From positions 40,924 to 104,923 of IMG/VR virus record IMGVR_UViG_3300035517_000038: 64,000 nucleotides of DNA; one strand, written 5' to 3'. The DNA comes from a virus. Lineage: Duplodnaviria > Caudoviricetes. A program made the translations under genes and the position numbers. Positions 1,637-25,928 of this stretch are shown here, in pieces. Numbering within the stretch: position 1 is the first letter of the stretch; each line of letters starts with the position of its first letter. The notes below the pieces were generated by a model. That model saw nothing but the letters and a program-made list of their open reading frames with translations. It had not been told where the DNA came from and made no database searches.

Positions 1637-4600
1637 ATGTCTAAAATATATTGTTTATTCCCAACTCCTGATATTATCCAGTTGGGTAAATCAGTAGGTA
1701 TTACACAACCTGTAATAGCTGCTAATACAATAGCAGCTTGGCAAACTAAGAATAGTCAGCCTGGTGTACTACCTTCATTAACACAATTGAGTGATTATAT
1801 GAAAGACTCTGCTAAAGAAAGAGAAGCTCTTGCATATGCTTTACCTTTCTATGAAGAGAATACTTCAGAAGATAGTAGGGGAGGCTCTGTAGATATTCAA
1901 GTAGGAGAAAATGGTCTTGTTACAATGTCTCTTGCTAAATTTAAGCCTGGGCAGAATATAGATGACTGGATAGATTCCTTTGGTTTATTTAGTACATCAG
2001 ATAAAATAGCTATTGTAGATGAGGAAAGTGCTTATGCCTATACTTTATTTCTTAATAAAGAAATAGTGCAAAGAGGTTTGGATAAAGGTATTTTATTTAG
2101 AGATGCTAAAAATCCAAACTCTGAATTAAAAGCTATACATAATAGAGCTATTACTAGATTAAATAAATATAATGAAGAGGTTAGAAAAATAGGCATAATA
2201 GCTAAAGATAATAGAACTAAGCAAGTACAAGAAAGAGAATCTTTATTAGATATAGTTAATGGTAAAGGTCAAAACCAAGATGTATCTGACAATAGTAATG
2301 AAACTATAGATATATGGTCTAACCAAGGAAACGCACAAGATTTAAGTAATATGGCCCCTAGGCCTTTTGTTCATGCTTTTAGAGGGCAAGAGATGAAATT
2401 TGATAATGTAGAAAAAGCTTTCCACTTTGCAAAAATGGAGGGACTGCTTTCTACATTGGAGAATCTAATGTCTAGCACTCAAAATGAGGACATAAAGAAA
2501 GCTTGTGCTAAAGCTATTGAAGAAGTTAGAGCAAAGATGGTTAAAATCCGTGATGCTAAAAATGGCTATAAAGCAAGAGAATATGGTAATGAAAGAATTA
2601 CTAGTGAGAATAGAGATGTTAATATCGCTATAACAGATTATTTTGCTCAAGTATGGAATAAAGGCAAGGCTAGAGAGAATCACTTTAATCTAATGCGAGA
2701 ATCTTTTTTGCAAAATCCTACAGCCGCACAAAGATTGGTCAACACTGGTAATGCTAAACTTACTCATGATTTAGGACAAAATTGGGCAGTGCCTTTTGCT
2801 GAAGATATTACAAAAATTAGAGAAGAGCTTAAACAATTATATAAAACACAAAGCCAGCAGCATATAGAAGCTTTAAATAAATTAAGCTCTACAGGGATGG
2901 TAGCTACTGGCACCAAGAGTCCTATTAGAGGAGCTTCTCATGTTAAGGATATTACAGAAAGAAAACAAACTAAATACAGCAGATTAGCAGCTGCTTTTAC
3001 CCCTCAGCAATTAACTGCTAGATATGAAAAAATTGCTAGAGATTTTAGTCAGAAGGTTTCTGATAAAGTAGAAGAACTTATAGCAGAAACAGAGGAGAAG
3101 GTACAAAGTGGAGATATAAATGAAGCTTTGCAAGCAAATGCTACACTTAAAATGCTTAAAGACCCTGTTCAAGGTAGAAGAATAGCTATTGAGAAATTAA
3201 CCTTTAATGCTATATATAAGGAACTCATGCAGGATTATAAGGATATGCTGGAAATGGCTAAAGAAGATAATAATGCAGAGTTAGTTCAAAAATATCAAGA
3301 TATAGTAGATAACTTTGAAGCTCTCTTTGACAATGCTTGTGTTATTATTGAGAAACTTGAGAACCTCAGAATTACTACACAAGATGTTGTTGAGCATACT
3401 GGTAATGAGAAAGTAAATGCAATTGCTGCTGCTATAGAAGAGGCTACTGCAGAAAAACAATTAGAGGAAGATGATAACTCAGATGATGAAAGCGGTAATA
3501 GAGCTACTGGTAATGATGGTTGGTCTTATAAAGCTAAGTTTGTAGACCCTTATGACTCTATCAGTGCTAAGACTAAAGCAGCTCTTACAGACATTAAGAG
3601 AGTTATATTTGATGGAGTAGATGAAGATGGTAATGTAAAAACTACAGAAGTCTATGATGACTTAGGAGAAGTAAGATACTATGACAACACTTACATACAT
3701 GGTGTTCTCCTACATGAGTTATCTGGTATTATCACTCCTTCAGAATATATGATTAGGGATAAAGAAACTGGGGAGGTGTCATTCCCAGCTTTAGAAAAAT
3801 TATCCTCTAAATATCCTTGGGTATCTCAGGTTATTGATAAACTTAAGGCTGATGAAACTCTGGCATCTACTTTCTATAATGACCTTAGAAAAGAGAGAAC
3901 GGACTTTTGGAAACATAAAGTTGTAAAGGTAGCTAGAAAAGATGGGGGTTTTGATTATATATGGCAAACAATGTCCATTAATAATTCTGTAACTCAGGAT
4001 TCTGTAATTGATACTATTCTTCAAAACTTTGACTCTGGTAATGTTTTAACAACTCTGAGTTTATATAATACAACAGGAGAAATAAACACAGAGAATATAG
4101 ATGAAATTCTTAAAATAGCTGCGGCATTAGAAAATGATGCCTCATCTACAGAAGATACAGAAGATTTACTAGAACTTTTAGATACTTTTAAAAATCTTAT
4201 GGCTTCTATAGGAGTAGAAATAGACAATGCTTATGCATATGCTATTATACAGGATAAAGTTCTTTTTCCTGAGGTTATGGAAGCATTTAAGGATTTAATA
4301 AAAGAAGCTAAAGAATGGAAAAAAGGAAAGCATTTCCCGACTACTGCTCTAAAGCTATTTAAAAATTTTACTGATAAATTAGGTTATGTGGAAGATAATG
4401 TACCTGCATTATCTACTAGAGAAGGTGATAAAAGTTTACCAACATATTCTGCCCCTAATTATTTAGAAACTATCTTTAAAAGACTAAAGAGTGATGAAGT
4501 AAGATTATCTACATTAGCAGAAGAATTTATGAAATATGATTTCTTCTACGATAAAGAGAATAAGAAGTGGAAATCAGGTTGGTTAGAAATATTCTCAGGC

Positions 4601-7600
4601 GAAGATAAGACTGTTAATATTAGAGAGGTTATGGCTAATTTGAGCATAATGTCTTTAGATAATATTAATGGTAAAGAGTATGATGATTGGACAGCACCAG
4701 AAATCAAAAGTATGTTCTTCCAGCAATATTTAGCAGCTGGTGATAAATTTGCGTGGTACAATACTCCTATATATTCTGACTCTACTACAGTTAATTTTAT
4801 TAGGATGGTGAAATATACATCAGATAGTAAAGGCACCTTCAAAGAGAAGTTATTACCCAAATTCAATACTCTAGTAAGGCAAGAGTTAGGTAGAATATTG
4901 CAGGTAGAAAAGAGAAAAGCCCTTATAGAAGAGGGTAAGGTGATGGCTATTCAGAATTTTGACAAGAATGGTGATAAATTTTTCTTTTTACCTAAACTCA
5001 ATGACTATAAAGTAGGAGAGGTTAGCTTCCTGGATGCTATAAGAGCAGCTAAAGATGCAAATGATAATGCAAAAGTAGATGCTATTATAAATGAAGCCAT
5101 TATGGAGATAATGGAGGAAGATTTTAAAGAATTTTACACAACTCAAGACATTCATGCTGTAACTGATGTCAATGGTAATATTATTATAAAAGAGGATGGT
5201 AAAGCTCTAGAGAATAGCCTTTATTATATAGCTGTAAAAGAATTAGAATCTAGAAATCTATTACCTAAAGTAGAACCTAAAGCGGTAAACAAGGAAGGAT
5301 TATCAAAGAAGGAGATAGAACAAGCAGAAGAAGCTGCAAAAGAAGAAGCTGAAGAAGAAACAAGAAAACGTATAAGTGCTGCTGTTGATGAACTTATAGA
5401 AGAATATTTCTGGAATAGCTGCTATGCAACCTCTCAGATTATTGAGATTACTGTTACTGACCCTGCGTTCTTTAAGAATGATAATGGTGTAGACTTCCAA
5501 AAGCGCTTTAAGCAAATCTTTGCTGCTGGTACTAAGTTAAATACTCAATCTAGATATGGTAAAACTCATGAATTAACAGTGTATCTTGCAGATGCTATCC
5601 AAACTACTGCTACTATGGGTAACCTTAGAAAAAATTTGGATACTGCTGTTAAAGAAAGAAGAATGACTAGAGAGCAAGCTGATGATATTATTGAAGCAAT
5701 GCTCAGTATAAATGCTACAGATGCTCAGGCTTATAGAAACCTGGAATCTATGAGGTCTCTATTAGATATGATGGGTAAATGGGATGAGGAAACCATGAGT
5801 CCAGCATTTGAAAGACTGAGAGAGGGTACATATACTAAAGAAGATTTTGATATAGTATGGCAAACTATTAAACCGTTTGTATTTGCTCAAATAGGTAAGC
5901 CTGATGGTTTAGGTGGTATGCTGAAAGTTGCTCATCAGAATAAAAACTCTGAGTTTCTTATTCTCTCATTGTTTAATATGATTGGTAACTCCTATAGCAC
6001 ATCGCCTAAGATGAGAGCTATAGACCAGTTTATGCATGAGAATGGTATTGATGTTGTACAATTTGAATCTGCTGTTAAAGCAGGTGGTCAAGGTATTATA
6101 GATATATCACACTCCCCTCAAAAGCTTAAAAAAGCTCTTAAAGATGGTGTTATAGAGTTTAAGAGTGGTAAGGAAAAATACTCATTCAGTATTAACGGTG
6201 CTACTACTTTCGGAGGAAAGAATGGTATCAAGGCTATGATGGATGCTAAACTTGTTAAAGGAGAAATTACACAGGAAGTTTATAATGACTTTATAAAGTA
6301 CTTTGAGCCTTCACAAGTAGAAGTTTATCAGATGCTTAATGCAGCTGCTAAACAAGGTCCTAATATGCAAACTGACCCAAATGCTCCTGGCTATGGTTTA
6401 AATATGGAGGTTGTTCATGCTATTCCTTATGATAACTTTGTAGTACAGCAACCTACACCTGAGCATTTATTTGATACTACTGCTGTTTTTGGCTCTCAGT
6501 TTAGAAATCTTATTACTGCTGACTTACCTGATAATATTTCTATAGAAGTTAATGGTATAAAGATTGAAGGTAAAGATGCTGTATTAAAAACTTTCCAAAA
6601 TGCTATTATTGAAAATTTATTAGATGCCTATCAAGAGGTAACTGATAGATTTGCTACTATAGAGGATTTACAAGAAGCTATATTAAAAACTGTAAAAGGT
6701 AATCCTAAATATGGTAGAGAGTTCTTAGAGGCTATGGAAATTGTAACTGATTCAGAAGGTAGAAAATCCTTTAATCTTCCTATGCATACTCCAGGTATGG
6801 CTACAAAGATGGAGGAGATTCTAAATGCTATGTTTAAAAATGCAATTGCTAAACAAAGTATTAAGGGCGGTAATGCTATCCTTGTTTCTGACTTTGGTTT
6901 TACAAATGAGCTTGAGGTAATAAGAGATGAAGAAACTGGTGCTCTTGTAGAAGTAGAGTGCTATATGCCTTGGTATTCTAAAAAGAAATTTGGTGCATTT
7001 TTAACTAAAAAGACAGACCCTAGAGGTAATATTATAGAAACCCTCGATATAGAGAAACTTGAGAAAATGGCACCTGACCTACTGGAGTTAATAGGTTATC
7101 GTATTCCTACTGAAGGTAAGTATTCAATGGTGCCTTTGAAAATTAAAGGTTTCTTACCTCAATCTCAAGGTTCTGCTATCATGTTACCTGCTGATATTAC
7201 TAAAATCGCAGGTTCGGACTTCGATGTTGACAAACTTTTTATGATGTTCCCTGAGTTTAAATCTTTCTCATATAATAAAGGTAAAGCTCTTAAGGACTAT
7301 AAAAAGTTATTAGGAGCTGATAAATTTAACAAAGCAGCTGCTTCTATAATTACAGAAAATGCTGAAGTTGCTGAAAAAGTAGAGAAAAATTTAGATAATC
7401 TAATGTCTCTTTCTGAAGAAGAATTAGATGCTATAGATTATAAAGACCCTGATTTTAAAAAGTGGTTTAAGGAGCATGAAAAAGAATATGAATATAAGAA
7501 TGAATATGGAGACCCTGCTCCCAGATTAAAGAAGATAAAGGCTAAGACTACGGAAGCTGAAAAGATGAATAAACAACAACGTAATAATATGTTGTTAGAT

Positions 7601-10060
7601 ATTTCAAGAGCCATCCTAAAAGACCCTAAAATATCTGAGCATTTTAATTCTCCTGGTAACTTTGATACTGTTAAAAAGGCTGCAAGAACATCAAGAATTT
7701 TAAATAGTAAGAAGTTGATAGAATCTCTTAAAGAAATGCTGACAGTAAATGATGTAGCACCTACCGAAAGAGAGATGGTAAAATGGTTACATAAAGCAGA
7801 TTTAAAAACTGTTGATGACTTTTTGGAAAAATACACACCTAAAAGAAGCTTACTTAGTCCTAGTACATTTATGTACTTCCATGCTCAAAATATGACTGGT
7901 GGTAAACTCATAGGTATGTATGCTAATAATACTACAATACAAGCAAAAACTCAAGGTAAATATGCTGAATTAAGAGAACAGTATTGCTTCACTATAAATG
8001 GTAGAGATATAGATAGTATCACAAAGCCATATATAACTATGCCTGATGGTACTATAATGCGTATCTCTAAAAACTGTGCAGAGTTTTCAGCAGCCTCTGT
8101 GGATAATGCTAAAGACCCTGTATTAGCAGACTTATTACAAGATACTGAGACAGCTCCTATTACTTCTACTATGCTTAGAATGGGTATGACTATTGATGAA
8201 ATTGGTACTATATTTGCTAATCCTTATGTGCAAATACATCTTATAAATGGTGCAAAATTTGTTAATTCCCTGTATGCACAGGAAATGGTGGCAGGGGAAA
8301 CGTATATGACTGCTACTGGTAAAAGTACATACTACAATACAGAGGATATGCAGACTTCTATAATTAGTTTTAATAGGGGCAATTTAAATTATTCACCGGA
8401 AGAGTTATCAGATGAAGGGCTGGAAGAATTAGGACATTTGTATAATGGCTATAAACTCTTCTTACAAATAAGTAAAGTAGCTCAAACTGTTAAAGATATG
8501 TCTAAAGTGCAAAGAGCAGACTCTCCTAATGGTGCTATACAGAATACTGTAGCAAAAGCTATAATTCAGCAAAAAAGAGTAACAGCTTTTCAATTACTGG
8601 ATAACTTTGAAAAAGAAGCTGTACGTAAAAATAAAAAACTTTTAGACCCTACGCCTGTTGTCGGTTTTATTAATTTACTGCCTGAAAATAATGTAGGAAG
8701 GGCATTAAGCAGTAAAGAAGAGTTGAGAAACAAATTTAGAAACTCAAGTATGCCTATGTTGCAAGCTTTTTATTCTTTAGGTATAGATTTTGGTCTTGCT
8801 AATATTGCTAGATATTATGCTCCAATATCAGGAGGTGCTACATATGCTATAGACTTGTTATTTAAAAATGCTAAAAATTATAAAGTAGGTGAAAAAGTTT
8901 TAGATAGATTCTTAAAACAATCTACTATATATTATCTAAGTAAAACTAAATTTTTTGGTGATGACCCTGAATCAGGACAAACTTACAAAGAAAAAAGAGC
9001 ATATTATCTAAATGAGTACCCTCATGAATTTAAAAAACTAAGACAAGAGCACCCGGAGCTTAATAATAATGAAGCTATAAAAGCTCTATGGGTAAATGAA
9101 AACATTGATGAAGATACTGGTATTCCTATGGGAGCTACTATTGAGATGAGAAATGCATCTAAAAAAACTAAAACCAGCAGAATGATGCTTATGAACGCTT
9201 TTGATGCTTTATTTAATTCTAATGAGAAAACATCCGGAATTAGTGATGCATTAGCTGTTCAAGTAGCTACTGACTTATTTGCATATGCTTACTATAAGTA
9301 TGGTCTTGGTTTTGGTGCTAAATCCTTTGGTAATTTCTTCAGTCCTTTCTTCTATAATCAATTTAGTGACATAGTAAATGATTTAAGATTAATGGATAGA
9401 AATTATGATATGACGGAAGCTTCTAATTACTATTACCAATTTATGGTTCAAAATGCTCCTGATATATTACCTACTTTCCAAGGTGGTATTAATAGTAAAT
9501 TTGTATCAGGTGTTTTAGATTCAAAAGGTGAGGCTATTGAAGGTATGGTTAAAGTACCATTAGGTAAAGTATTTAATAAATACGATGCTAATAGTATAGT
9601 ACACCAGTATATTTGTGTTACAGATAATACTTCAGATGTATATCTATTTTCTGATATGTTAGAGTTAGAAGAAACAGATGGTGCAGGTAACAAGATAAAA
9701 GTTAAATATGCTGCCTATGATAAAATAGGTTCAGTTGAGTCAAGCTCTTTTGTCTATGATGCTAATTCTGACCATAGAAAGTTAGTAGACGATTATGCAG
9801 ATGAGGAACTTAATGCAGGTCTAGAAGATTTTGATTTAGATGAGGTTAGGGAATTAAGAAGAGCAGCAAGAGAAGAATCTGAAGAGTCGGAAGCTCCTGT
9901 GGAAGATTTTGAAAAAGAAGATAAAGACTCTAGAAGACAAAGACTGGAAGATACTGATTTCGGAGATTATTCAGCAGTAGAAGAAGATGATGATGACACA
10001 GCCTCTGAAAATTATGACCCTCAAAAAGGCTTGGAAGCTGCTGGAGAAAAAAAATGTTAA
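1637..10060 (+). CDS. crAss-like virion RNA polymerase (single-chain, double-psi-barrel type) with N-proximal NADAR-like domain
   Basis: Catalytic GSDFDVDKL (DxDxD, nt ~7211-7237), GYRIPTEGKYS, AASVDNAKDP, DFQKRFKQ, NATDAQAY; 2807 aa; NADAR-like motifs at ~aa 225-400; acidic C-terminal tail. Confidence 0.93.
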   Translation: MSKIYCLFPTPDIIQLGKSVGITQPVIAANTIAAWQTKNSQPGVLPSLTQLSDYMKDSAKEREALAYALPFYEENTSEDSRGGSVDIQVGENGLVTMSLAKFKPGQNIDDWIDSFGLFSTSDKIAIVDEESAYAYTLFLNKEIVQRGLDKGILFRDAKNPNSELKAIHNRAITRLNKYNEEVRKIGIIAKDNRTKQVQERESLLDIVNGKGQNQDVSDNSNETIDIWSNQGNAQDLSNMAPRPFVHAFRGQEMKFDNVEKAFHFAKMEGLLSTLENLMSSTQNEDIKKACAKAIEEVRAKMVKIRDAKNGYKAREYGNERITSENRDVNIAITDYFAQVWNKGKARENHFNLMRESFLQNPTAAQRLVNTGNAKLTHDLGQNWAVPFAEDITKIREELKQLYKTQSQQHIEALNKLSSTGMVATGTKSPIRGASHVKDITERKQTKYSRLAAAFTPQQLTARYEKIARDFSQKVSDKVEELIAETEEKVQSGDINEALQANATLKMLKDPVQGRRIAIEKLTFNAIYKELMQDYKDMLEMAKEDNNAELVQKYQDIVDNFEALFDNACVIIEKLENLRITTQDVVEHTGNEKVNAIAAAIEEATAEKQLEEDDNSDDESGNRATGNDGWSYKAKFVDPYDSISAKTKAALTDIKRVIFDGVDEDGNVKTTEVYDDLGEVRYYDNTYIHGVLLHELSGIITPSEYMIRDKETGEVSFPALEKLSSKYPWVSQVIDKLKADETLASTFYNDLRKERTDFWKHKVVKVARKDGGFDYIWQTMSINNSVTQDSVIDTILQNFDSGNVLTTLSLYNTTGEINTENIDEILKIAAALENDASSTEDTEDLLELLDTFKNLMASIGVEIDNAYAYAIIQDKVLFPEVMEAFKDLIKEAKEWKKGKHFPTTALKLFKNFTDKLGYVEDNVPALSTREGDKSLPTYSAPNYLETIFKRLKSDEVRLSTLAEEFMKYDFFYDKENKKWKSGWLEIFSGEDKTVNIREVMANLSIMSLDNINGKEYDDWTAPEIKSMFFQQYLAAGDKFAWYNTPIYSDSTTVNFIRMVKYTSDSKGTFKEKLLPKFNTLVRQELGRILQVEKRKALIEEGKVMAIQNFDKNGDKFFFLPKLNDYKVGEVSFLDAIRAAKDANDNAKVDAIINEAIMEIMEEDFKEFYTTQDIHAVTDVNGNIIIKEDGKALENSLYYIAVKELESRNLLPKVEPKAVNKEGLSKKEIEQAEEAAKEEAEEETRKRISAAVDELIEEYFWNSCYATSQIIEITVTDPAFFKNDNGVDFQKRFKQIFAAGTKLNTQSRYGKTHELTVYLADAIQTTATMGNLRKNLDTAVKERRMTREQADDIIEAMLSINATDAQAYRNLESMRSLLDMMGKWDEETMSPAFERLREGTYTKEDFDIVWQTIKPFVFAQIGKPDGLGGMLKVAHQNKNSEFLILSLFNMIGNSYSTSPKMRAIDQFMHENGIDVVQFESAVKAGGQGIIDISHSPQKLKKALKDGVIEFKSGKEKYSFSINGATTFGGKNGIKAMMDAKLVKGEITQEVYNDFIKYFEPSQVEVYQMLNAAAKQGPNMQTDPNAPGYGLNMEVVHAIPYDNFVVQQPTPEHLFDTTAVFGSQFRNLITADLPDNISIEVNGIKIEGKDAVLKTFQNAIIENLLDAYQEVTDRFATIEDLQEAILKTVKGNPKYGREFLEAMEIVTDSEGRKSFNLPMHTPGMATKMEEILNAMFKNAIAKQSIKGGNAILVSDFGFTNELEVIRDEETGALVEVECYMPWYSKKKFGAFLTKKTDPRGNIIETLDIEKLEKMAPDLLELIGYRIPTEGKYSMVPLKIKGFLPQSQGSAIMLPADITKIAGSDFDVDKLFMMFPEFKSFSYNKGKALKDYKKLLGADKFNKAAASIITENAEVAEKVEKNLDNLMSLSEEELDAIDYKDPDFKKWFKEHEKEYEYKNEYGDPAPRLKKIKAKTTEAEKMNKQQRNNMLLDISRAILKDPKISEHFNSPGNFDTVKKAARTSRILNSKKLIESLKEMLTVNDVAPTEREMVKWLHKADLKTVDDFLEKYTPKRSLLSPSTFMYFHAQNMTGGKLIGMYANNTTIQAKTQGKYAELREQYCFTINGRDIDSITKPYITMPDGTIMRISKNCAEFSAASVDNAKDPVLADLLQDTETAPITSTMLRMGMTIDEIGTIFANPYVQIHLINGAKFVNSLYAQEMVAGETYMTATGKSTYYNTEDMQTSIISFNRGNLNYSPEELSDEGLEELGHLYNGYKLFLQISKVAQTVKDMSKVQRADSPNGAIQNTVAKAIIQQKRVTAFQLLDNFEKEAVRKNKKLLDPTPVVGFINLLPENNVGRALSSKEELRNKFRNSSMPMLQAFYSLGIDFGLANIARYYAPISGGATYAIDLLFKNAKNYKVGEKVLDRFLKQSTIYYLSKTKFFGDDPESGQTYKEKRAYYLNEYPHEFKKLRQEHPELNNNEAIKALWVNENIDEDTGIPMGATIEMRNASKKTKTSRMMLMNAFDALFNSNEKTSGISDALAVQVATDLFAYAYYKYGLGFGAKSFGNFFSPFFYNQFSDIVNDLRLMDRNYDMTEASNYYYQFMVQNAPDILPTFQGGINSKFVSGVLDSKGEAIEGMVKVPLGKVFNKYDANSIVHQYICVTDNTSDVYLFSDMLELEETDGAGNKIKVKYAAYDKIGSVESSSFVYDANSDHRKLVDDYADEELNAGLEDFDLDEVRELRRAAREESEESEAPVEDFEKEDKDSRRQRLEDTDFGDYSAVEEDDDDTASENYDPQKGLEAAGEKKC

Positions 10061-10075
10061 TAAAAAATTTAATAT

Positions 10076-13000
10076 ATGGCATCATGTACTTATGCCCCTA
10101 AAAAGGGCGCAGATTTATTCTATGCTCTAAAAAAAGAGCTTGGATATAATAAAGCCTGGGATGTAATTGGTATTATTAATAACCCTAAATTTAAGCAGGA
10201 TTTTGCGGATACTCTCACTTTAGATAGTGAGGGTATCCCTACCCTTGCTTCTGTAATGGGTAATAAATATATACAAGGATTTCTAGGTATAGATAACACT
10301 GCTAAAATGCTACAACGAGAATACTCAGCTGTAGAAGATACTATGAGTAATTATAAATCAGCATTAGAACAGGCTAAATTGTTTAATACTACAAGTGAGC
10401 ATAAGAATAATTTCACAGCAGTAGTAAAAAATAAAGATGGTAAACTTAGAGTTACTATCTTACCTAGAACTGAAACTGCTTTAGAAGAGTTTAAAGACCA
10501 ATATGCTGCACATAGCCTTAATAGGCAATTAGAGACCATTCTAGAGCCTGTAGGTATTACAGTGGGAATGTTATCAGAAGCAGAAATAAAGGCTGGTAGA
10601 ACGGGCGTAATTAACTTTGCAGCTGCTAATAGAATGGCTCAAGATACTATATCTATGATTAGAGTAGCTAATAATAGACAAGGTTTTGAAGCTCTTAGTG
10701 AAGAATATTCACACTTACTTGTAGCTGCCTTTAAAGATACTCCTCTATTAGAGAGGTTGATTAATGCTCTTGCAAAGGATGAGGAAGCCCTTAGAGTTAT
10801 TCTTGGTGATGAATATGCAGATACTGTAAATTTCCAAGATGGAGATATGGCTCTTGTGGCTGAAGAAGCTGTAGGTCAATTATTGAGAGAGCACTTTGCT
10901 CAAAAAGTTGGGAGTAAGTCAGCTTTAATTAACCGCTTTAGAGATTTTGTACACTCTAAATATAAGGGTATGGATGAATCAGATGTAGCCCATGCTATAG
11001 TAGAGTCTGAATCTGTGCTCAGTAGTTTAGTACAAAAAATGCTTGAAGGTACTCTAAAAGTTGACCCTGCTAAAATAGAAACCAGAATGGTGCAGCTTAA
11101 TTCTTTAGCTGATAGATTGGACAGGAATATGGAACTACTAAAACATATGAAAGTTCAAGAGGTAAAACAGGCTCAATTATCAGGTACTAGAGGTACTAGT
11201 GATACATTGCATAAAATTAATGTAGCTTTAAATAATTCTACAGATATTGCAGCACAAGCTGTAGGATTTACTGAATATAGTATGGAGGCTCTTAAGGCTT
11301 TTACAAAGGCTCAGGGTTTATTAAATTCTATTGATAGAGGAATATCAACACAAGATACATTTAGAGATTTAAGACAGGTAGAGGCTACTATTGGTAAATA
11401 CGGTAAATTTATAAAAGGGCTTAATGATACAATAAATGAGGAAAAAACATTAAGACAAGAGCAATTTGAAGTAGAAATAGATGATGAGGGTAATCCTGTT
11501 TATACTCCATTAGACCCTGAAGATGTGTCTATGTTTGCTGAACCTATTCCAATTCTTCAGGATGATGGTACTTATGAATATATAAATATGTATGAGGTAC
11601 TCTCAGCTCTTAATGATATTTCACAAAGAATTGCTTCAGAATTTGAAGCAAAGTCTTTAAGCTCTTTTGCTAGTTTCTTAGAACCTGTATTAGGTACAGA
11701 GGTTACTACAGAAATTGGTAAAAATGCTGGTACTGGAGTATTGGTTACCGATTTATTAAAAAGAGCTTCTAATGATATATCATTCTTTGATAGATGGTTG
11801 GACTCTATGGGACAGTCTAGAGACCCTATTCTTAATGCTTTTGATGAAATAGTCAAAAGGCAAAATGAGGAAGCTAAGGATAAAGCACAAGGTCTTATTA
11901 GAAGATTACAGAAGATAATGCTCGATGCTAAAGATAAAGGTATCACAGATTTTGATTGGATGTTTGAGAAACTCTCTGATGGTAGCCTTAGTGGTGATTA
12001 TATTAGTGAGATTAATAGAAATCAATACCATAAAGAGAGATTAGAGATGGAAGCTGCTCTAGAGGCTAAATATGGCAGAAATCCTAAAGGCGAAGAATTA
12101 GAAGCTAAAAAGAGAGAAAGAGAAGCCTGGCATTTAGAACATTCTAAAAAGTCATTTGGTAGATGGCGTATTAATGAACGTAAGTATGAAAATGCTGCTT
12201 ATAAGGCACTGTCTAAAGACCAAAGAGAGATTCTTGATAGATTATTAGCTATCAAAGAAATTGCTGATAAATTATTACCTGCAGCTAAAGTAGATAAGCT
12301 TAAAGCTGTACAAATGCGTAGAATGGGTAATAGTAGAGTATTAGATTCATTAGCACATCCTAGTAGAATTTGGGAAAATATTAAGGAAGCGGTTGCTGAA
12401 GAATTATTAGATAGAAACGATGATAACCTTACTTTTGGTGAAAACAATAGAAGAGGTTTAAAAGATTTCTCAGGTAAGGAATATATGGAATTACCTGCTC
12501 TTTATACTAATAGGTTAGAAAATCCTAATGACCTTAATAGAGATGTAATAGGCTCTCTTATGGCTTATGTAGCTATGGCTTGCAAATATGAAGCTATGAA
12601 TGAAGTAGTAGATGCCTTAGAAGTTGGTAGAAGTATAGTAAATAAAAGAGAAGTACAGAAAACTGTAGGTAATCAACCTATGGTGGAGAAATTAAGTAAT
12701 GGTTTTGATACAGTGACTGCAAAAATCTTACAAGATGGAAAGACAAATATGCAAGCCAAACTTGATGACTTTATGGCTTCACAAGTGTATAATAGATTAT
12801 TAAAAGATTATGGTACATTTGATGTATTTGGTCAGAAGATTAATAAGAATAAAGCAGTTTCATTACTTCTTAAATATTCTTCATTAGCTCAATTAGGGTT
12901 CAATGCTCTTGCTAACTTAGCCAATGTAACTCAAGGTGTGGCTATGCAGAATATAGAAGCTGCTGCAGGAGAGTTTTTCAATGCTAAAGAGTTAGCTAAA

Positions 13001-14116
13001 GCTGATGCTGCATATGGTAGAATGATTACAGGCTATCTTTCAGAGTTAGGTAGCAGAGTCAAAACTAACAAACTGTGGTTATTTGACCAAGCTATTGACT
13101 TTAAAGGTGACTACTTCAAGGATATGAAGCACCAAGATATGCGCAAGTTTGTACAAAGAGTATTGGGCAAAGAGCTTGCGTTTATAGGTCAAGAGGCTGG
13201 TGACCATTGGTTATATAACAGAACAGCTATAGCAATGGCTATGAGAACTAAGGTTAATGTTCCTGGTAAAGGGGTAATGTCATTGTGGGATGCTCTAGAG
13301 TATGAATCTCCTAGTGGTATTAATGATTCTAGAATTAAAGAATGTAGACTACCTCAAGGTACTACTTTTGTAAAAACAGGTGAAACTGCTAGTCTTAAGA
13401 GATTTGGTAGAGAAGTTCTAGAAATAAACCAAGAACTTTTTGGTATCTATAATGAAGAAGATGCCAATGCTGCTAATAGAGTTATAGGTGGTAGATTGGT
13501 AATGCAGTATAGAAAATACATGAGACCTCTGTGGAATAAGAGATTTGGAGAATCTAGAAAATCTCTTATAACTGGTAGAGAGTACGAGGGTTTCTATCGT
13601 TCACTGTTTAAATTTGCATCAGCAGTAGCAAAAGAGAAAAGTTGGAAAAATAACTCTTTCATGTTAAATGCTACTGAACATCAAAAGAGGAATTTAAGAA
13701 GAGCAGTTATGGATATTTTACAATGGGCAGTTATGGCAGCATTAGCTAATTTCTTAGAATGGCCTGATGATGATGATAATTATATTTTCCAATTGACAGA
13801 ATATCTAGTTAAAAGATTAAACAGAGAATTAGGTATGTTTGCTTTATCTCCTATAATGTTCCAAGAGTGGTACAACACTATAACAGCCCCTGCAGCAACT
13901 TTATCTGTTGTAAAACAAGTTGGTATATTTGTAGGTTCATTAGTTAATCCTGTTAGCTGGATGGATGAAATAGAACAAGGTAGATATAAAGGTATGACTC
14001 AAGTAGGAAAAGCAGCGTATCTGTTACCTATTCCCTATTTATCTTACTACAGACAATGGGATAAATTCTATAATAGACTTGATGAAATGTCAGATTACTA
14101 TACTAGGTCTAGATAA
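10076..14116 (+). CDS. large virion cargo/ejection protein of the crAss RNAP locus
   Basis: 1346 aa directly downstream of vRNAP; degenerate zincin-like EEYSH...AEEAVG; helical body with hydrophobic C-terminal segments. Confidence 0.7.
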   Translation: MASCTYAPKKGADLFYALKKELGYNKAWDVIGIINNPKFKQDFADTLTLDSEGIPTLASVMGNKYIQGFLGIDNTAKMLQREYSAVEDTMSNYKSALEQAKLFNTTSEHKNNFTAVVKNKDGKLRVTILPRTETALEEFKDQYAAHSLNRQLETILEPVGITVGMLSEAEIKAGRTGVINFAAANRMAQDTISMIRVANNRQGFEALSEEYSHLLVAAFKDTPLLERLINALAKDEEALRVILGDEYADTVNFQDGDMALVAEEAVGQLLREHFAQKVGSKSALINRFRDFVHSKYKGMDESDVAHAIVESESVLSSLVQKMLEGTLKVDPAKIETRMVQLNSLADRLDRNMELLKHMKVQEVKQAQLSGTRGTSDTLHKINVALNNSTDIAAQAVGFTEYSMEALKAFTKAQGLLNSIDRGISTQDTFRDLRQVEATIGKYGKFIKGLNDTINEEKTLRQEQFEVEIDDEGNPVYTPLDPEDVSMFAEPIPILQDDGTYEYINMYEVLSALNDISQRIASEFEAKSLSSFASFLEPVLGTEVTTEIGKNAGTGVLVTDLLKRASNDISFFDRWLDSMGQSRDPILNAFDEIVKRQNEEAKDKAQGLIRRLQKIMLDAKDKGITDFDWMFEKLSDGSLSGDYISEINRNQYHKERLEMEAALEAKYGRNPKGEELEAKKREREAWHLEHSKKSFGRWRINERKYENAAYKALSKDQREILDRLLAIKEIADKLLPAAKVDKLKAVQMRRMGNSRVLDSLAHPSRIWENIKEAVAEELLDRNDDNLTFGENNRRGLKDFSGKEYMELPALYTNRLENPNDLNRDVIGSLMAYVAMACKYEAMNEVVDALEVGRSIVNKREVQKTVGNQPMVEKLSNGFDTVTAKILQDGKTNMQAKLDDFMASQVYNRLLKDYGTFDVFGQKINKNKAVSLLLKYSSLAQLGFNALANLANVTQGVAMQNIEAAAGEFFNAKELAKADAAYGRMITGYLSELGSRVKTNKLWLFDQAIDFKGDYFKDMKHQDMRKFVQRVLGKELAFIGQEAGDHWLYNRTAIAMAMRTKVNVPGKGVMSLWDALEYESPSGINDSRIKECRLPQGTTFVKTGETASLKRFGREVLEINQELFGIYNEEDANAANRVIGGRLVMQYRKYMRPLWNKRFGESRKSLITGREYEGFYRSLFKFASAVAKEKSWKNNSFMLNATEHQKRNLRRAVMDILQWAVMAALANFLEWPDDDDNYIFQLTEYLVKRLNRELGMFALSPIMFQEWYNTITAPAATLSVVKQVGIFVGSLVNPVSWMDEIEQGRYKGMTQVGKAAYLLPIPYLSYYRQWDKFYNRLDEMSDYYTRSR

Positions 14117-14130
14117 TTAAATAGGTTCAA

Positions 14131-14170
14131 TAAAAAGGGAGGCACCAAACGGTGTCTCCCTTATTTTTTT
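14131..14170. terminator. bidirectional intrinsic terminator between convergent units
   Basis: A-run, stem aagggaggcacc-aaac-ggtgtctccctt, T-run; lies between convergent stops at 14116 and 14170. Confidence 0.9.
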
Positions 14171-17100
14171 TACATTCTACACTTAAGGAAAGTTTCTTTC
14201 TCTAATAGAGTCATCTTTTCAAAATCTTCTATAGTCATACCTCTTTCCTTAAGATAATCCATAGATTCTCTAGCTTGAGCATTGAGTTTAGCATGATTGT
14301 AACTTTCTAATTTTTCTTTGAAAGCACTTCTCTCAGCTATTTCTGCTTTCTTTGCATCAAGCATATTCTGAAGTTGTACTCTTCTTTGTAAGAGTTTTGT
14401 ACTTTCCTTATTCATAGCAATACCTAATTTATTTACAGATGTCCATATCTCATACCTACCTCTACACTCATCTACTTGAGTTATATCTTTATATTCCTCA
14501 GGTATAGCATTTTCAGCAGCATCAGGTGTTAAGAATCCATCTCTATAAATAACATAGCCTTTTCTAAGTTTGGCTTTAGGGTCTCTTTTGAGTTTCTCAT
14601 AAGCAGCTCTCAATCTATTGTTGCTTTCTTTTATTTTATCTCTTGTAGAAGATATTTCATTCTCTATATCTTTAATCTCTTGTTCTAATGCTTCTTCTTC
14701 ACTCATGGACCTTCTAAGAGTTTGTTCTCTACTCTGTTGATTTCTATTTATAGTTATAGCTTTAGAATCATATATAATATGATGGTCGGCATTACTAAAA
14801 CCAGAATGGTGCATAGCCCCTACATAACCGCCTTTAGCTACTAATAATTTAGTAACATCTGCTTGAGCTTTTCCAACATTAGAACCTGCAGAGCCTTTAT
14901 CTAAATATTCTATAGATTGTAAACCCTCAAGTATTCTAATCTTGTCCATGGTAGTTTCTGCAGTATTATAAAGATTATCAAAAATATCTTGAAGCTCTTT
15001 CGGTGTCATATTTTCACCCTTAGTACCTAACAGAGATTTACCATTAACTCTTGGCTCATTACCAGAAAGTGTCATATGAGCTATAACTCTTTGATATTGC
15101 TCACTATTCTTTATTTTAGGTAGTAAAGAATATTTTATACTATCTAAAATTGACAAAGTTTCTGCATCAGGGGCAGTATCTAATTGTAAAAATTTACCAT
15201 TAGCATTTATACTAATACTGTAAGTATTACCACCATGCAAAGATTTTAATAAACTTTCTGCAACTGTTACAGCTTCATCAATATTAGTAAAGAACGCCTC
15301 AGTTTCTTTATTAGCTTCTACAAATTTATTATATTTTTCAGAAAGTTGTCTAGCTAAGTTATTTAACTGTATTGTTTCTTTATTTTCTACAATTTTACCT
15401 TTGCTATATACACCTTCACTAAAAGAACTTTTAATAGCTTTTATCTCTGCTTTAAGTTTATCTGCATTAGTTATAAGTCTTCTGATAGTACCTAAAATAC
15501 CCTTTGTTTTCTGAATACTAGCTAACTTATATTGTAAACTTTCTAAACTATCAATTCTCGAAGATAACCTTTCAACTAAATCAACAAATTCTTTAAAACT
15601 TTGAGTATCCTGCTGGAAAAATTTAGTCAAACGTTCAAAAAGTCTTGTATTCTTTTCTCCAAGATTCTGCCCTAATTTGATAGTAGCTGAGAATGTATTT
15701 AAAGCATCTACCATATCAGCTACAGATAAATTAGAGCCAGAACTTTCAAAAAGAGTGAAAGCTTTTGGTAAATACTCTCTTAATCTAGTAGCCAATGCTC
15801 TAATCCTGTACATCTGCGCTTCCACTTTACTACCAGTAAAATAAAAACCTGACGTATATGCAGTATTACCCTCACCTGTAAACAAGAAATCTGTACTAAA
15901 CTCATCTATAGCAAAAGCTCCTGTACCATGATAAGTATTAATAGTATTAGTAGCTTTACTCTTATTAGCAAACTTACCTTTTCTAATATTTCTGTAGAGT
16001 TTATTAAGTTGAGCCTCTTTACCAAATAAAGTTTTAACAAACATCTTAAGTTTACCCCAAAGTTTTCTAAAACCTTTTTGATTCTCCAGTTGCTCATAGT
16101 TCTGCATATACCTTCTAAAGCCCTCTGCAAGCTCTTCCTCAAGCTCTAATTCAGACTTCTGACCAAATACCCTAGCAGCTTCTTCATAAAGGTCTGAAAG
16201 CTCTCTATCGCTTAATAAGGTTTGGGATACATAGTGGAAAGCCTCATGATAAGCAGTACCCCTACTAGAGTTTTTAGCAAGATACACAACACCATCTTTA
16301 AACAATCCCCATACTTTATCTCCATTAGCAAGAGTTGATAATTGTGTTACACTCTCCACTAATCTAAGAGCATCTTCATGAGCTAATTGAGGGAGCATTT
16401 GTTGTACTCTTGCAACCTCTGCTTCTATATCAGTACCTTCATAGGCTTCATCAGAAGACTCTCTCCTGAGTTTTGAAGATTTTTCATAAGCCTCTCTTGC
16501 TTTCTTTTGAATATCCTCCTCAGACATACTGCTATTAATAGTAGCATCATATGTAGCAAAGAATCTATTCTTCATAGTATTATTGAGTTTAGAAACAGCA
16601 ATAACTATATCTTGAGGAACTTTATAGAAAGTTAACTTTCTAGTAGCATTTATCTTACCTCTAAGACTCTTAAGTGCTTCATTATAAGCATCTTGAGTAT
16701 CATCTTTCTTAGCTTCTGCTGCTTTCGCTTTCTCTTTCTCTGCTTTCTGCTTAGCTCTTTCAGCTGCAATATCCATAGAGAAATCAAAATCATCAGCAGA
16801 AAGAACTTCACCACCATCATCATCTGTAGCAGCTTCATCTGCTGCAGGAGTAGTAGTCTTTAACTCTGTAGCAGCTTTCTCTCTGCTGGCTACTACAGTA
16901 GCATATGCAGAGTTTACAGAGTCTATAATATCTTCATCATACTTAATCTTGGTTACATCTATATTAAAATGTTCAGCGAGCTTATCATATAAAGCATCTG
17001 TAAATTCAGTACCTTCTAAGTTTTCTAAACCTTTAGATAATTCATCTACAACATTAACAAAATTAGGGTCATTAAATATAGTATTTCTGACTGATAAAGT

Positions 17101-23957: not shown

Positions 23958-25928
23958 TTAATCTTTTTCACTACCTTTACGGTCTATATTTGCACCAGAT
24001 GAAGTATCTAACAAAGTATTCATAATTGCGGATGTTTTACCAGTAGCACTGAGGGTTATATCAGATACATCTATTGCTCTAGCATCTCTACCCTCTTCTT
24101 TAGCTTTTTTCCTTTCTTCTTGTTCTAACTTTTTCCTCTCAAGGTTTTCAGTTCTAATTACTTCATTATATTCTTGCAAAGCAGTTTGTCCCCCAAGTCC
24201 TAAGTCATCAGGATTTACAATATATCTTCTACCATCATCTAATTCATATATCATTTGATTACTACTAGGAACATTTATTATGTACTTAACATTTACTTTA
24301 TTAGCATTAGTACCTGTAGCAGTAAGTTCATCATATATCTTAGAACCCTTAACACTCTTACCTTCTGCAATAGAACCATCATCCTTAAGTTTACCAGCTT
24401 CTCTTACAATACCTGCTCTAATAAGACCTGCTAATTTTTTAGAACCTTCATCAGTATTAACTCTGACTCTTACTACATCAGTATTAACAAGACCTGCAAG
24501 TTCTTCACTACCATAATCTTCCATAAATTGTTTATGATTTGCATATATAGTTTTTAGAGATTCAGGTGTGTATGTAAATTCATAATTATTTCTAAACTTA
24601 TATGGATTACCTCCAGAGTCACGGGCATCAGTTTCTGTATAGTGAGGAGTAAGTTCAAAACCTCTTTCTTTTGCCCATGCAGCAAAGTCATCATCTTTAT
24701 TCGCAAAGGCATAACCCGCAGAACCTCTAAGCTCTTGACCACTAGCCTTGCGGTCTGCATATTCTACAGAAAGCTCTATAGCCCTCATACCCTTAGAAGT
24801 GAATTTACCAGTATCAGTAATATAACCCTTCTTACGATATTTATCATAAGTTGCCTTAGCTTCATCATTCAGTTTCTTTACTTCTGATGCTGAATACCAA
24901 GTAGTTATATTATCTCTATATTTATTCTTATCCTCATCAGTTTTTTTACCGCTGGAGCCTGAACCACTTCCTGAACCTCCACCATCTTCATCACCGTAGT
25001 AATTCCTTATATTATATTCAGCTTCTGCCTTCTTATACATAAGGTCAATAGCATTATCAATAGCCCTCTTTTCCTTTCTAATCTCAGCTTCTTCTTGTGC
25101 AGCCATAACTGCGCCCTTATTCTCCATAGTAGACCATGAGGATTCTCCAACACCTGCAACTAAACCCTTCATAGCATAAGAATAAGCACGGTCTTTAATA
25201 TCTTCCCAATTATCCCATGTATTAATACCTGAAGAATTTATAGCAGATTCTACAACATTTGCCATAATAGCATTGTTCTTATTGGAGTTTTCATAAGCAT
25301 CTGTACCATAAGTAGTAGCAAATTTTTGAATATCATCAGCACTAAATCCCTTCTTAAGAAGTAATTTATAGGTGAAGTTATCTATATTACCATTCCTTCT
25401 AAGAGTTGCCATATCCTTAGCTAAGGCGTTCATTTGCTCGGCTACATCCGCTTTTAAAAGGCTACCAGTATAGTTTTGATTAAGAGCATTGTAATTAGGA
25501 TTATTCATATATTCTCTTAAACCTATTTCATTAGCTTGTCTACCCCACAAGTATGTGGGGTCTTTAAGAGACATCTCCTGCTGTAATAATGCTTGTCTAG
25601 TTCTTTCAGCGAGTGCTTTTTCCATAGGATTAATAGTCTTTTGATATTGATTTTTTAATCCTATGAAAGCATTTCTAGAACCAACATTAAGACCATTAGC
25701 TGCTAAATCATTTACACTCTTTTGTAAATTATTCATATAATTCTGATACTCACGATAAACATCAGCATCTTGAGCATTATATCTTAGTTGCTCCATCTCT
25801 GCTGCTTTATCAGCAAGCACACTATACTGCTCTTCTAGAGCTTGATGAGCTTGAGTAGCCTGCAAGAGTGGTGCATTAATCTCTTCATATGTAAAAGGAT
25901 TAAATATTGTAGTTAGAGTCCTTGCCAT
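23958..25928 (-). CDS. virion cargo protein (cargo 2-like by synteny)
   Basis: 656 aa between cargo 1 and the giant cargo; N-terminus TTIFNPFTYEE; TAATG coupling to upstream gene. Confidence 0.7.
   Translation of the reverse strand: MARTLTTIFNPFTYEEINAPLLQATQAHQALEEQYSVLADKAAEMEQLRYNAQDADVYREYQNYMNNLQKSVNDLAANGLNVGSRNAFIGLKNQYQKTINPMEKALAERTRQALLQQEMSLKDPTYLWGRQANEIGLREYMNNPNYNALNQNYTGSLLKADVAEQMNALAKDMATLRRNGNIDNFTYKLLLKKGFSADDIQKFATTYGTDAYENSNKNNAIMANVVESAINSSGINTWDNWEDIKDRAYSYAMKGLVAGVGESSWSTMENKGAVMAAQEEAEIRKEKRAIDNAIDLMYKKAEAEYNIRNYYGDEDGGGSGSGSGSSGKKTDEDKNKYRDNITTWYSASEVKKLNDEAKATYDKYRKKGYITDTGKFTSKGMRAIELSVEYADRKASGQELRGSAGYAFANKDDDFAAWAKERGFELTPHYTETDARDSGGNPYKFRNNYEFTYTPESLKTIYANHKQFMEDYGSEELAGLVNTDVVRVRVNTDEGSKKLAGLIRAGIVREAGKLKDDGSIAEGKSVKGSKIYDELTATGTNANKVNVKYIINVPSSNQMIYELDDGRRYIVNPDDLGLGGQTALQEYNEVIRTENLERKKLEQEERKKAKEEGRDARAIDVSDITLSATGKTSAIMNTLLDTSSGANIDRKGSEKD

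Follow-up and report, generated by a model that had tools for sequence, protein, structure and literature searches.

The 64,000-nucleotide stretch of DNA analysed here (the window; positions 40,924 to 104,923 of the IMG/VR record IMGVR_UViG_3300035517_000038) encodes three giant proteins of a crAss-like phage, namely a virion RNA polymerase (vRNAP) and two proteins resembling gp49 and gp47 of phage crAss001. These proteins carry cysteines at exactly those ends which face each other in the order gp47-like protein, vRNAP, gp49-like protein. Judged from the alignments, conservation of cysteine over hundreds of homologues with 20-45% identity is confined to four columns, those of the end cysteines. 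A linkage of the facing ends is the simplest model for this conservation, for the polarity, for the equal numbers of cysteines and for the pattern seen in naturally fused genes. We consider the chances about evenly balanced that the three proteins are joined head-to-tail in the virion via their facing end cysteines, most likely by disulfides.

In the window, the vRNAP possesses nine cysteines, among them Cys6 (start MSKIYC) and Cys2807, which is the final residue (Table 1). The gp49-like protein contains three cysteines including Cys4 (MASC), and the codons of Cys2807 and Cys4 start 30 nt apart across the gene junction. Exactly two cysteines occur in the gp47-like protein of 3260 aa, Cys3163 and Cys3258, the latter within the C-terminus ..LKCRM. 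The translations thus agree with the cysteine positions given by the original prediction, which was made from the DNA of the window alone and had described the start and end of the vRNAP, the start of the next protein with two cysteine codons ~30 nt apart, and two cysteines in the last ~100 residues of the 3260-aa protein. It had also stated that such a placement is unlikely by chance. For the window alone, the probability that at least 4 of the 14 cysteines lie within any of six end windows of 7-8 residues amounts to ~1.3e-6, and with the conservation across homologues chance is no longer tenable. The three giants are poor in cysteine (0.19% vs 1.15% in the other open reading frames (ORFs) of the window with ≥150 aa).

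Beside the cysteines, the termini show some further features. The vRNAP terminates in a strongly acidic low-complexity stretch of ~65 residues closed by the conserved cysteine, and across the family the last 80 residues have a mean net charge of about -12. The N-termini of the gp47-like proteins, the head of the proposed chain, share the motif D-I-T-K-T-G-P-x-G-L-K-G (..QDITKTGPQNY.. in the window; also seen in L005-L041). The C-termini of the gp49-like proteins, its tail, carry a conserved motif of the type D-x-S-I-x-Y-Y-A-R-P-Y and never a C-terminal cysteine.

All four end cysteines proved to be conserved throughout the order, which is what the proposal had made its first point of control. 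Among 102 full-length vRNAP homologues (roughly 30-45% identity), a cysteine is located within the first 8 residues in 93; the remaining nine open with differing N-terminal sequences and probably represent wrong start calls. At the other end, a cysteine lies within the last 12 residues in 96/102 and within the last 45 in 100/102. The two exceptions, P0021 and P0051, resemble truncated ORF calls; P0021 is shorter than P0018 by about 68 N-terminal and 28 C-terminal residues. In the gp49-like proteins the cysteine occupies position 3-6 in 115 of 120 homologues, and the exceptions are mostly fragments or proteins with a visibly misplaced start, either upstream or downstream. A search with a profile of the N-terminal 100 residues gave a consistent result, with the cysteine in 138/141 cluster representatives (50% identity); of the three without it, two have a start placed too far upstream and one is a fragment. 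A C-terminal cysteine was found in none of the 120 gp49-like homologues, and an N-terminal one in none of the gp47-like N-termini inspected. Additionally, 37 non-redundant IMG/VR loci around gp49-like genes were evaluated. Here the cysteine was present at the C-end of the vRNAP in 30/30, at its N-end in 24/24, and at the C-end of the gp47-like protein in 31/31 cases with the gp47-like gene downstream of the gp49-like gene. L006, an apparent exception, has its cysteine 12 residues before the end.

Alignments of the ends confirmed how exclusive this conservation is. In the N-terminal 100 residues of 22 vRNAP homologues (alignment A2, mean identity 23%) and in the C-terminal 150 residues of 29 gp47-like proteins (A4, mean identity 20%) the cysteine is the sole invariant column, and the same applies to the C-terminal tail of the vRNAP (32/32). 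The N-terminal 100 residues of the gp49-like proteins (A3, mean identity 35%) have an invariant Cys, Pro and Asp; the cysteine is likewise invariant in a further alignment (A1). Internal cysteines of the three proteins are not conserved. This includes Cys3163 of the gp47-like protein, the position of which is spanned by A4 with column 148 (Cys3258) alone being invariant; many orthologues contain a single cysteine only. When 1.84 billion representatives were searched with the N-terminal module of the gp49-like protein, 271 matches (E ≤0.001) were obtained. In each genuine match among the best 150 of the 271, the module formed the extreme N-terminus of the protein, and the search revealed no further fusion event.

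A conserved end cysteine may also serve as a rule for the annotation of gene starts and ends. The annotated starts of crAss002 gp33 (L064:14335-14433) and cr110_1 gp40 (L061:13437-13481) and the first-ATG start at L037:849-965 lie 32, 14 and 38 codons, respectively, upstream of an internal Met that gives a family-typical N-terminus. The corrected N-termini read M-S-C or M-I-K-C, so that the cysteine can guide the choice of the start codon.

The pattern is most distinct in cultured phages. In crAss001, Cys5 is the sole cysteine of gp49 and Cys2339 the sole cysteine of gp47 (2341 residues); gp50 (2412 residues) contains Cys5, Cys1334 and Cys2404. In phage phi14:2, gp66 has only Cys3 and Cys2179 of 2180 residues, gp65 only Cys3, and the final residue of gp67 is the single cysteine within its last 1308 aa. 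The unclassified cyanophage Lbo-JY46 of Leptolyngbya encodes a gp47-like protein of 1552 aa with its last residue as sole cysteine. The next gene product (2748 aa) resembles gp49 in its C-terminal part and contains a single cysteine, Cys4.

In view of these data, an origin of the pattern by chance, from amino acid composition or as a side effect of signals in the nucleotide sequence of gene ends is hardly worth considering. Only the post-hoc nature of the first observation speaks for it. Against it stand the value in the order of 1e-6 for the window and the retention of the cysteines in hundreds of homologues with 20-45% identity, on both strands, in differing gene orders and in recoded genomes. 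To judge from the homologues, this conservation effectively refutes the chance reading.

Naturally fused genes indicate which ends might belong together. Seven genomes of the Suoliviridae (cr1_1, cr109_1, cr4_1, cr50_1, cr118_1, cr7_1 and cr10_1) possess no separate gp47-like gene. Instead, mapping with hidden Markov models (HMMs) revealed giant proteins of 4300-5400 aa with a gp47-like first half and the vRNAP as second half. None of the seven has an N-terminal cysteine, and all keep the one at the C-end (last residue to 10 residues before the end). In the phages other than cr10_1, the gp49-like protein encoded next retains Cys3-5, often as its sole cysteine. An alignment of five of the giants showed one cysteine column common to all, and this is C-terminal.

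In the Intestiviridae, vRNAP and gp49-like protein form one protein of 4070-4620 aa. This was found in eight genomes (p-crAssphage, cr3_1, cr110_1, cr11_1, cr8_1, crAss002, cr271_1 and ctcc615), six of which were mapped by HMM. The eight fusions start with M-S-C or MANNC, in two cases after correction of an over-long annotated start, and none has a C-terminal cysteine. In six aligned fusions the N-terminal cysteine is the only cysteine column in common. The zincin-bearing protein encoded before the fusion ends with a cysteine at the last or second-to-last residue in 7/7 genomes examined. The HMM of the gp47-like protein did not reach these proteins, and their equivalence is based on motif (HExxH in six of the gp47 counterparts), position and annotation.

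The second point raised by the proposal, the absence of the cysteines where genes are fused, was likewise confirmed. No conserved cysteine exists at the junction of gp47-like protein and vRNAP in the Suoliviridae or at that of vRNAP and gp49-like protein in the Intestiviridae, and in each family the other pair is kept. This points to the pairings of the gp47-like C-end with the vRNAP N-end and of the vRNAP C-end with the gp49-like N-end. No cysteine is ever found at the outer ends of the trio, so that N-end and C-end cysteines match in number in every case and are located on facing ends.

Two side observations concern the giant genes themselves. Those of cr109_1 (L053), cr4_1 (L054/L057) and cr7_1 (L067) contain 18-148 in-frame stops under translation table 11. 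The stops inside the gp49-like match of cr4_1, the only genome in which their type was read, are TAG, which fits stop-codon recoding; such recoding is known in late genes of some crassviruses. Furthermore, the vRNAP ORF of several relatives is split exactly inside the DFDxD motif (L002:6283-7213, L003, L011:5970-7210, L041:5817-7083 and cr116_1, L047:8230-9071). Part 1 runs a few residues beyond its final ..GSDFD, part 2 opens with MVDK.., and the gap between them measures about 0.9-1.3 kb; in cr116_1 this gap holds a cysteine-rich ORF of 215 aa. Homologues ending with ..IAGSDFD represent the first part of this split form. By its appearance, the insertion in the active-site motif looks like an intron or homing-endonuclease insertion.

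If the facing ends are linked in the two pairs named above, a pseudo-polyprotein of about 7,400 residues would result. It would be nearly unbranched because the thiols are located at the extreme termini; a link by an internal cysteine would produce a branch. Such a chain could cross a narrow channel in extended form. It might be packaged at a fixed 1:1:1 stoichiometry and threaded as one through portal and tail, and the reducing cytoplasm of the host would then separate the three proteins. The stub beyond the cysteine comprises 2-6 residues at the N-ends and mostly 0-3 at the C-ends. In the predicted structures, Cys4 of the gp49-like protein is found in a coil tail before helix 1, and in the gp47-like protein the last helix is closely followed by the end cysteine. 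According to these models, both should therefore be accessible. For a complex of the last 90 aa of the gp47-like protein and the first 100 aa of the vRNAP, each supplied with an alignment, structure prediction gave values of 0.58, 0.03 and 0.03 in separate runs, which speak neither for nor against the pairing. A sulfhydryl oxidase of the Erv1/Alr type was detected neither in the phage genome nor, by the same search, in the control genomes. A thioredoxin-family gene is located a few kb from the cargo block in several Intestiviridae (L043:26729-27996; L062:28333-28602; L066:14396-14665) and may serve nucleotide metabolism only.

The chemical nature of the link is suggested by the ends as well. 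Each carries one conserved thiol, with neither a CxxC motif nor a conserved second ligand, and a disulfide is therefore favoured over a metal site. The original prediction had offered a Zn-hook as an alternative, and this part of it appears unlikely for the same reason. More generally, a metal ion could bridge the facing ends in a zinc-hook-like or thiolate manner, or all four thiols could form one Zn(Cys)4 node. The four conserved thiols across the three proteins of the unfused architecture would suit such a node, and a His adjoins the cysteine in some gp47-like ends. Nevertheless, zinc is poorly bound by just two thiolates, and the fused lineages retain only 2 of the 4 cysteines, which excludes a universal four-cysteine node. 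Altogether, we regard metal bridging as improbable.

Some further functions of terminal cysteines were considered and rejected. A Rad50-like zinc hook is not indicated, given the single cysteine per terminus and the missing CxxC. Bacterial lipoproteins have the lipobox cysteine at about residue 15-30, and here it is found at residue 3-8 with no hydrophobic leader. CaaX prenylation, which requires a cysteine precisely at the fourth residue from the end, does not fit its variable position here, which is mostly last to fourth-from-last and up to 43 residues before the end. For a split intein or trans-splicing, no Pfam (Hint) match was obtained in the three proteins, and the ends are short tails.

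It is also very improbable that the end cysteines have a catalytic or processing function, either as an N-terminal nucleophile exposed after removal of a 2-5-residue propeptide or as recognition sites of the zincin. Some N-terminal nucleophile (Ntn) hydrolases have short propeptides similar to the N-terminal sequence M-x(1-4)-C, and HExxH is present in gp47-like proteins. However, the model of the first 100 residues of the gp49-like protein shows an all-helical bundle after a coil tail and not the alpha-beta-beta-alpha fold of an Ntn hydrolase. A catalytic role can likewise not account for a cysteine that is the last residue, nothing else is conserved around the end cysteines, and Pfam and PHROG gave no matches.

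A more serious alternative, which is still rather unlikely in our estimation, is that each end cysteine acts alone. It could be a tether to another virion component, form a homodimer or be modified as a packaging or ejection signal, and fusion of the genes would remove the need for it. Loss of the end cysteines after fusion is expected under this assumption as well as under that of linked ends. The N-terminal modules of vRNAP and gp49-like protein, considered as paralogous docking modules, showed no detectable homology that would hint at a common docking (hhalign probability 6%, with a match of only 22 columns around the cysteine). In addition, smaller virion proteins of the Intestiviridae end in conserved cysteines for which no N-terminal partner has been identified. 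Cysteines acting alone, however, leave unexplained why the outer ends of the trio are free of cysteine (0/120 gp49-like C-ends and the gp47-like N-ends) and why N-end and C-end cysteines occur in equal numbers on facing ends in all three architectures. A candidate partner cysteine is also missing; the gp46-like cargo protein encoded next to the trio has none in the window, and nearly all of its orthologues have 0-1.

The smaller virion proteins mentioned are encoded in the neighbourhood of the Intestiviridae fusions. A motif ..(Y/F)xCGG with a basic tail is found near the C-terminus of p-crAssphage gp48, cr3_1 gp20, cr110_1 gp36 and crAss002 gp30, and in p-crAssphage gp47 (857 aa) the sole cysteine is the second-to-last residue. 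The corresponding loci are L043:424-3912 (p-crAssphage gp48 and gp47), L060:1418-2317, L061:1410-2216 and L064:3640-5313.

Several points weigh against linked ends. Beside the extra C-terminal cysteines of these neighbours and the ambiguity of cysteine loss just described, the argument from fused genes comprises only two independent events, and 3 of the 5 aligned Suoliviridae giants contain a non-conserved cysteine ~100-300 residues from the presumed junction. The position of the cysteine is not absolutely terminal either; in L010 and P0113-P0116 the vRNAP keeps the motif ..KPC and continues with a tail of 42-43 residues. In the cryo-electron microscopy study of crAss001, gp47, gp49 and gp50 were not resolved and such links are not mentioned (PMC10172136). 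The vRNAP of phi14:2 was purified and crystallised alone in dithiothreitol (DTT)/tris(2-carboxyethyl)phosphine (TCEP) (Drobysheva et al. 2021). This structure is uninformative with respect to links, because the protein was handled alone and with DTT/TCEP. Assembly in a reducing cytoplasm and the anoxic gut lumen call the timing and stability of disulfides into question. On the other side of this question, crAss001 virions do hold structural disulfides in the tail barrel and the fibre hubs (PMC10172136).

The record holding the window is a complete virus genome of 104,923 bp with direct terminal repeats, of which the window represents bases 40924-104923. By sequence comparison it is the genome of a divergent crAss-like phage; it is regarded as divergent because the nearest phage records show just 27-30% identity. 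Megablast of the DNA of this region against phage records gave no match, and Pfam and PHROG scans of the three giant proteins also gave none. The vRNAP was identified by tblastn and blastp matches to crAss001 gp50 and other crassvirus RNA polymerases and by a phmmer match to PDB 6VR4, the solved structure of phi14:2 gp66 (E 7e-23). Its translation contains the sequence ..GSDFDVDK.. with the catalytic motif DFDVD, as is characteristic of a two-barrel enzyme of the gp66 type. DFDxD is named as the catalytic motif in 10.1101/2020.03.07.982082. The gp49-like protein, annotated as RNA polymerase-associated, aligns to crAss001 gp49 over residues 4-1295 and is encoded directly after the vRNAP, a synteny kept in at least 30 loci. 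A zincin motif (HEAFH) occurs at residue 2569 of the gp47-like protein, which belongs to the family of crAss001 gp47 and p-crAssphage gp45.

The gene order of the block is that of crAss001. In the window, the gp47-like gene lies on the minus strand and is convergent with the gp49-like gene. The order gp47-like, vRNAP, gp49-like on one strand is found in phi14:2, Intestiviridae and Suoliviridae, not in this window. The chain from the 3260-aa protein via the vRNAP to the 1346-aa protein, as originally proposed, is supported as a pairing and order of proteins by the comparative data and does not apply as a gene order of the window. Mass spectrometry detected gp47, gp49 and gp50 in crAss001 virions, where they are called RNA polymerase-associated cargo (Bayfield et al. 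2023, PMC10172136). By analogy with crAss001 and phi14:2, packaging of the trio of the window into the virion and its ejection are putative. Further along the block, a gp45-like protein of 796 aa is encoded, whose called ORF contains only two cysteines (residues 11 and 32). Its orthologues in other phages mostly lack cysteine, and the start of the gene in the window may be mis-called.

Table 1. Positions of the cargo genes, cysteine codons and terminal features in the window.
Feature	Position	Strand	Remark
vRNAP (P0001), orthologue of crAss001 gp50 / phi14:2 gp66, 2807 aa	1637..10060	+	blastp crAss001 gp50, E 2.6e-121
vRNAP Cys6 codon	1652..1654	+	conserved N-terminal cysteine
vRNAP acidic tail, last ~65 residues	9860-10057	+	low complexity
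vRNAP Cys2807 codon	10055..10057	+	last residue, conserved C-terminal cysteine
gp49-like 'RNAP-associated' virion protein (P0002), 1346 aa	10076..14116	+	blastp crAss001 gp49, E 2.5e-174
gp49-like Cys4 codon	10085..10087	+	conserved N-terminal cysteine
gp49-like C-terminal motif	14081-14116	+	
gp47-like giant virion protein (P0003), 3260 aa	14170..23952	-	blastp crAss001 gp47, E 3e-68
gp47-like Cys3258 codon (-3 from end)	14179..14181	-	conserved C-terminal cysteine
gp47-like Cys3163 codon	14464..14466	-	second cysteine, not conserved
gp47-like N-terminal motif	23890-23952	-	
gp46-like cargo protein, 656 aa, 0 Cys	23958..25928	-	blastp crAss001 gp46, E 1.8e-37
gp45-like protein, 796 aa	25928-28318	-	

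No other phages are as abundant in the human gut as the crassviruses. Their trio amounts to about 0.7 MDa of polymerase-associated protein which has to be loaded and ejected through a narrow tail. The four end cysteines point to a concrete physical connection of the trio and fix its order, and the fused junctions, with no conserved cysteine, support this. If it exists, the connection would explain why some families have the same modules fused and others have them as separate proteins. A redox switch would then do the job which gene fusion, or fusion and proteolysis, does in sister families, and this would be a new viral route to a cargo that resembles a polyprotein and is separated only after it has entered the host. 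Tentatively, and with the balance of probability slightly on the doubtful side, the idea can be extended to crassviruses in general and at least one cyanophage: they might use a reversible 'split polyprotein' held together by terminal disulfides, a single chain of ~0.7-0.85 MDa that is cut apart by the reducing cytoplasm of the host. Virion cargo proteins, structural disulfides and polyproteins are known, and a cargo trio joined by end cysteines would be a variation on them. Full-text literature searches yielded no paper linking the three proteins with cysteines or disulfides.

Among known systems, crAss001 gp47/gp49/gp50 and phi14:2 gp67/gp66/gp65 are the closest, as orthologues of the trio with the same synteny and the same terminal cysteines. 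These proteins are present in virions, and their ejection is considered to occur in a partly unfolded state (Bayfield et al. 2023, PMC10172136; Drobysheva et al. 2021). The respective papers do not mention cysteines or covalent links among the trio; disulfides are reported for crAss001 only in the tail barrel and the fibre hubs. The Rad50 zinc hook is also an intermolecular bridge formed by cysteines of two chains. It requires, however, a CxxC motif per chain and a zinc ion, whereas the crassvirus ends provide one cysteine and no CxxC. In phages T7 and P22 the order in which internal proteins are ejected is thought to be due to non-covalent packing, and we know of no covalent head-to-tail links among them. 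Similar to the exit proposed for the crassvirus trio, these proteins (T7 gp14/gp15/gp16; P22 gp7/gp16/gp20) exit the capsid before the DNA, in order and via the tail (PMC10172136).

Phage N4 (Schitoviridae), with its vRNAP gp50 and the ejection proteins gp51 and gp52, likewise carries a giant polymerase in the capsid that leaves through a narrow tail. The description given for the N4 vRNAP is that of beads-on-a-string, with a probably loose or unfolded state, and the authors of the N4 study raise the question how its N-terminal domain, core and C-terminal domain correspond to the crassvirus trio (PMC13434306); the words 'cysteine' and 'disulfide' do not occur in this paper. In contrast to the crassvirus polymerase, which is a two-barrel enzyme, the N4 vRNAP has an unrelated T7-like fold, and it consists of one polypeptide.

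The natural fusions contain the modules in the same order, gp47-like, vRNAP, gp49-like, in one long chain. The Intestiviridae fusion is annotated as 'RNAP catalytic subunit fused to unknown RNAP subunit', and a form consisting of a 'single huge polyprotein' was noted by Drobysheva et al. (2021). This triple fusion was not located in our sample, which was drawn without Crevaviridae and the epsilon and zeta groups. In the fusions the modules are connected by a peptide bond as a result of gene fusion, whereas a reversible post-translational link is proposed for the proteins of the window. The linked chain would thus correspond, in a covalent but reversible form, to the natural fusions and to the single-chain vRNAP of N4.

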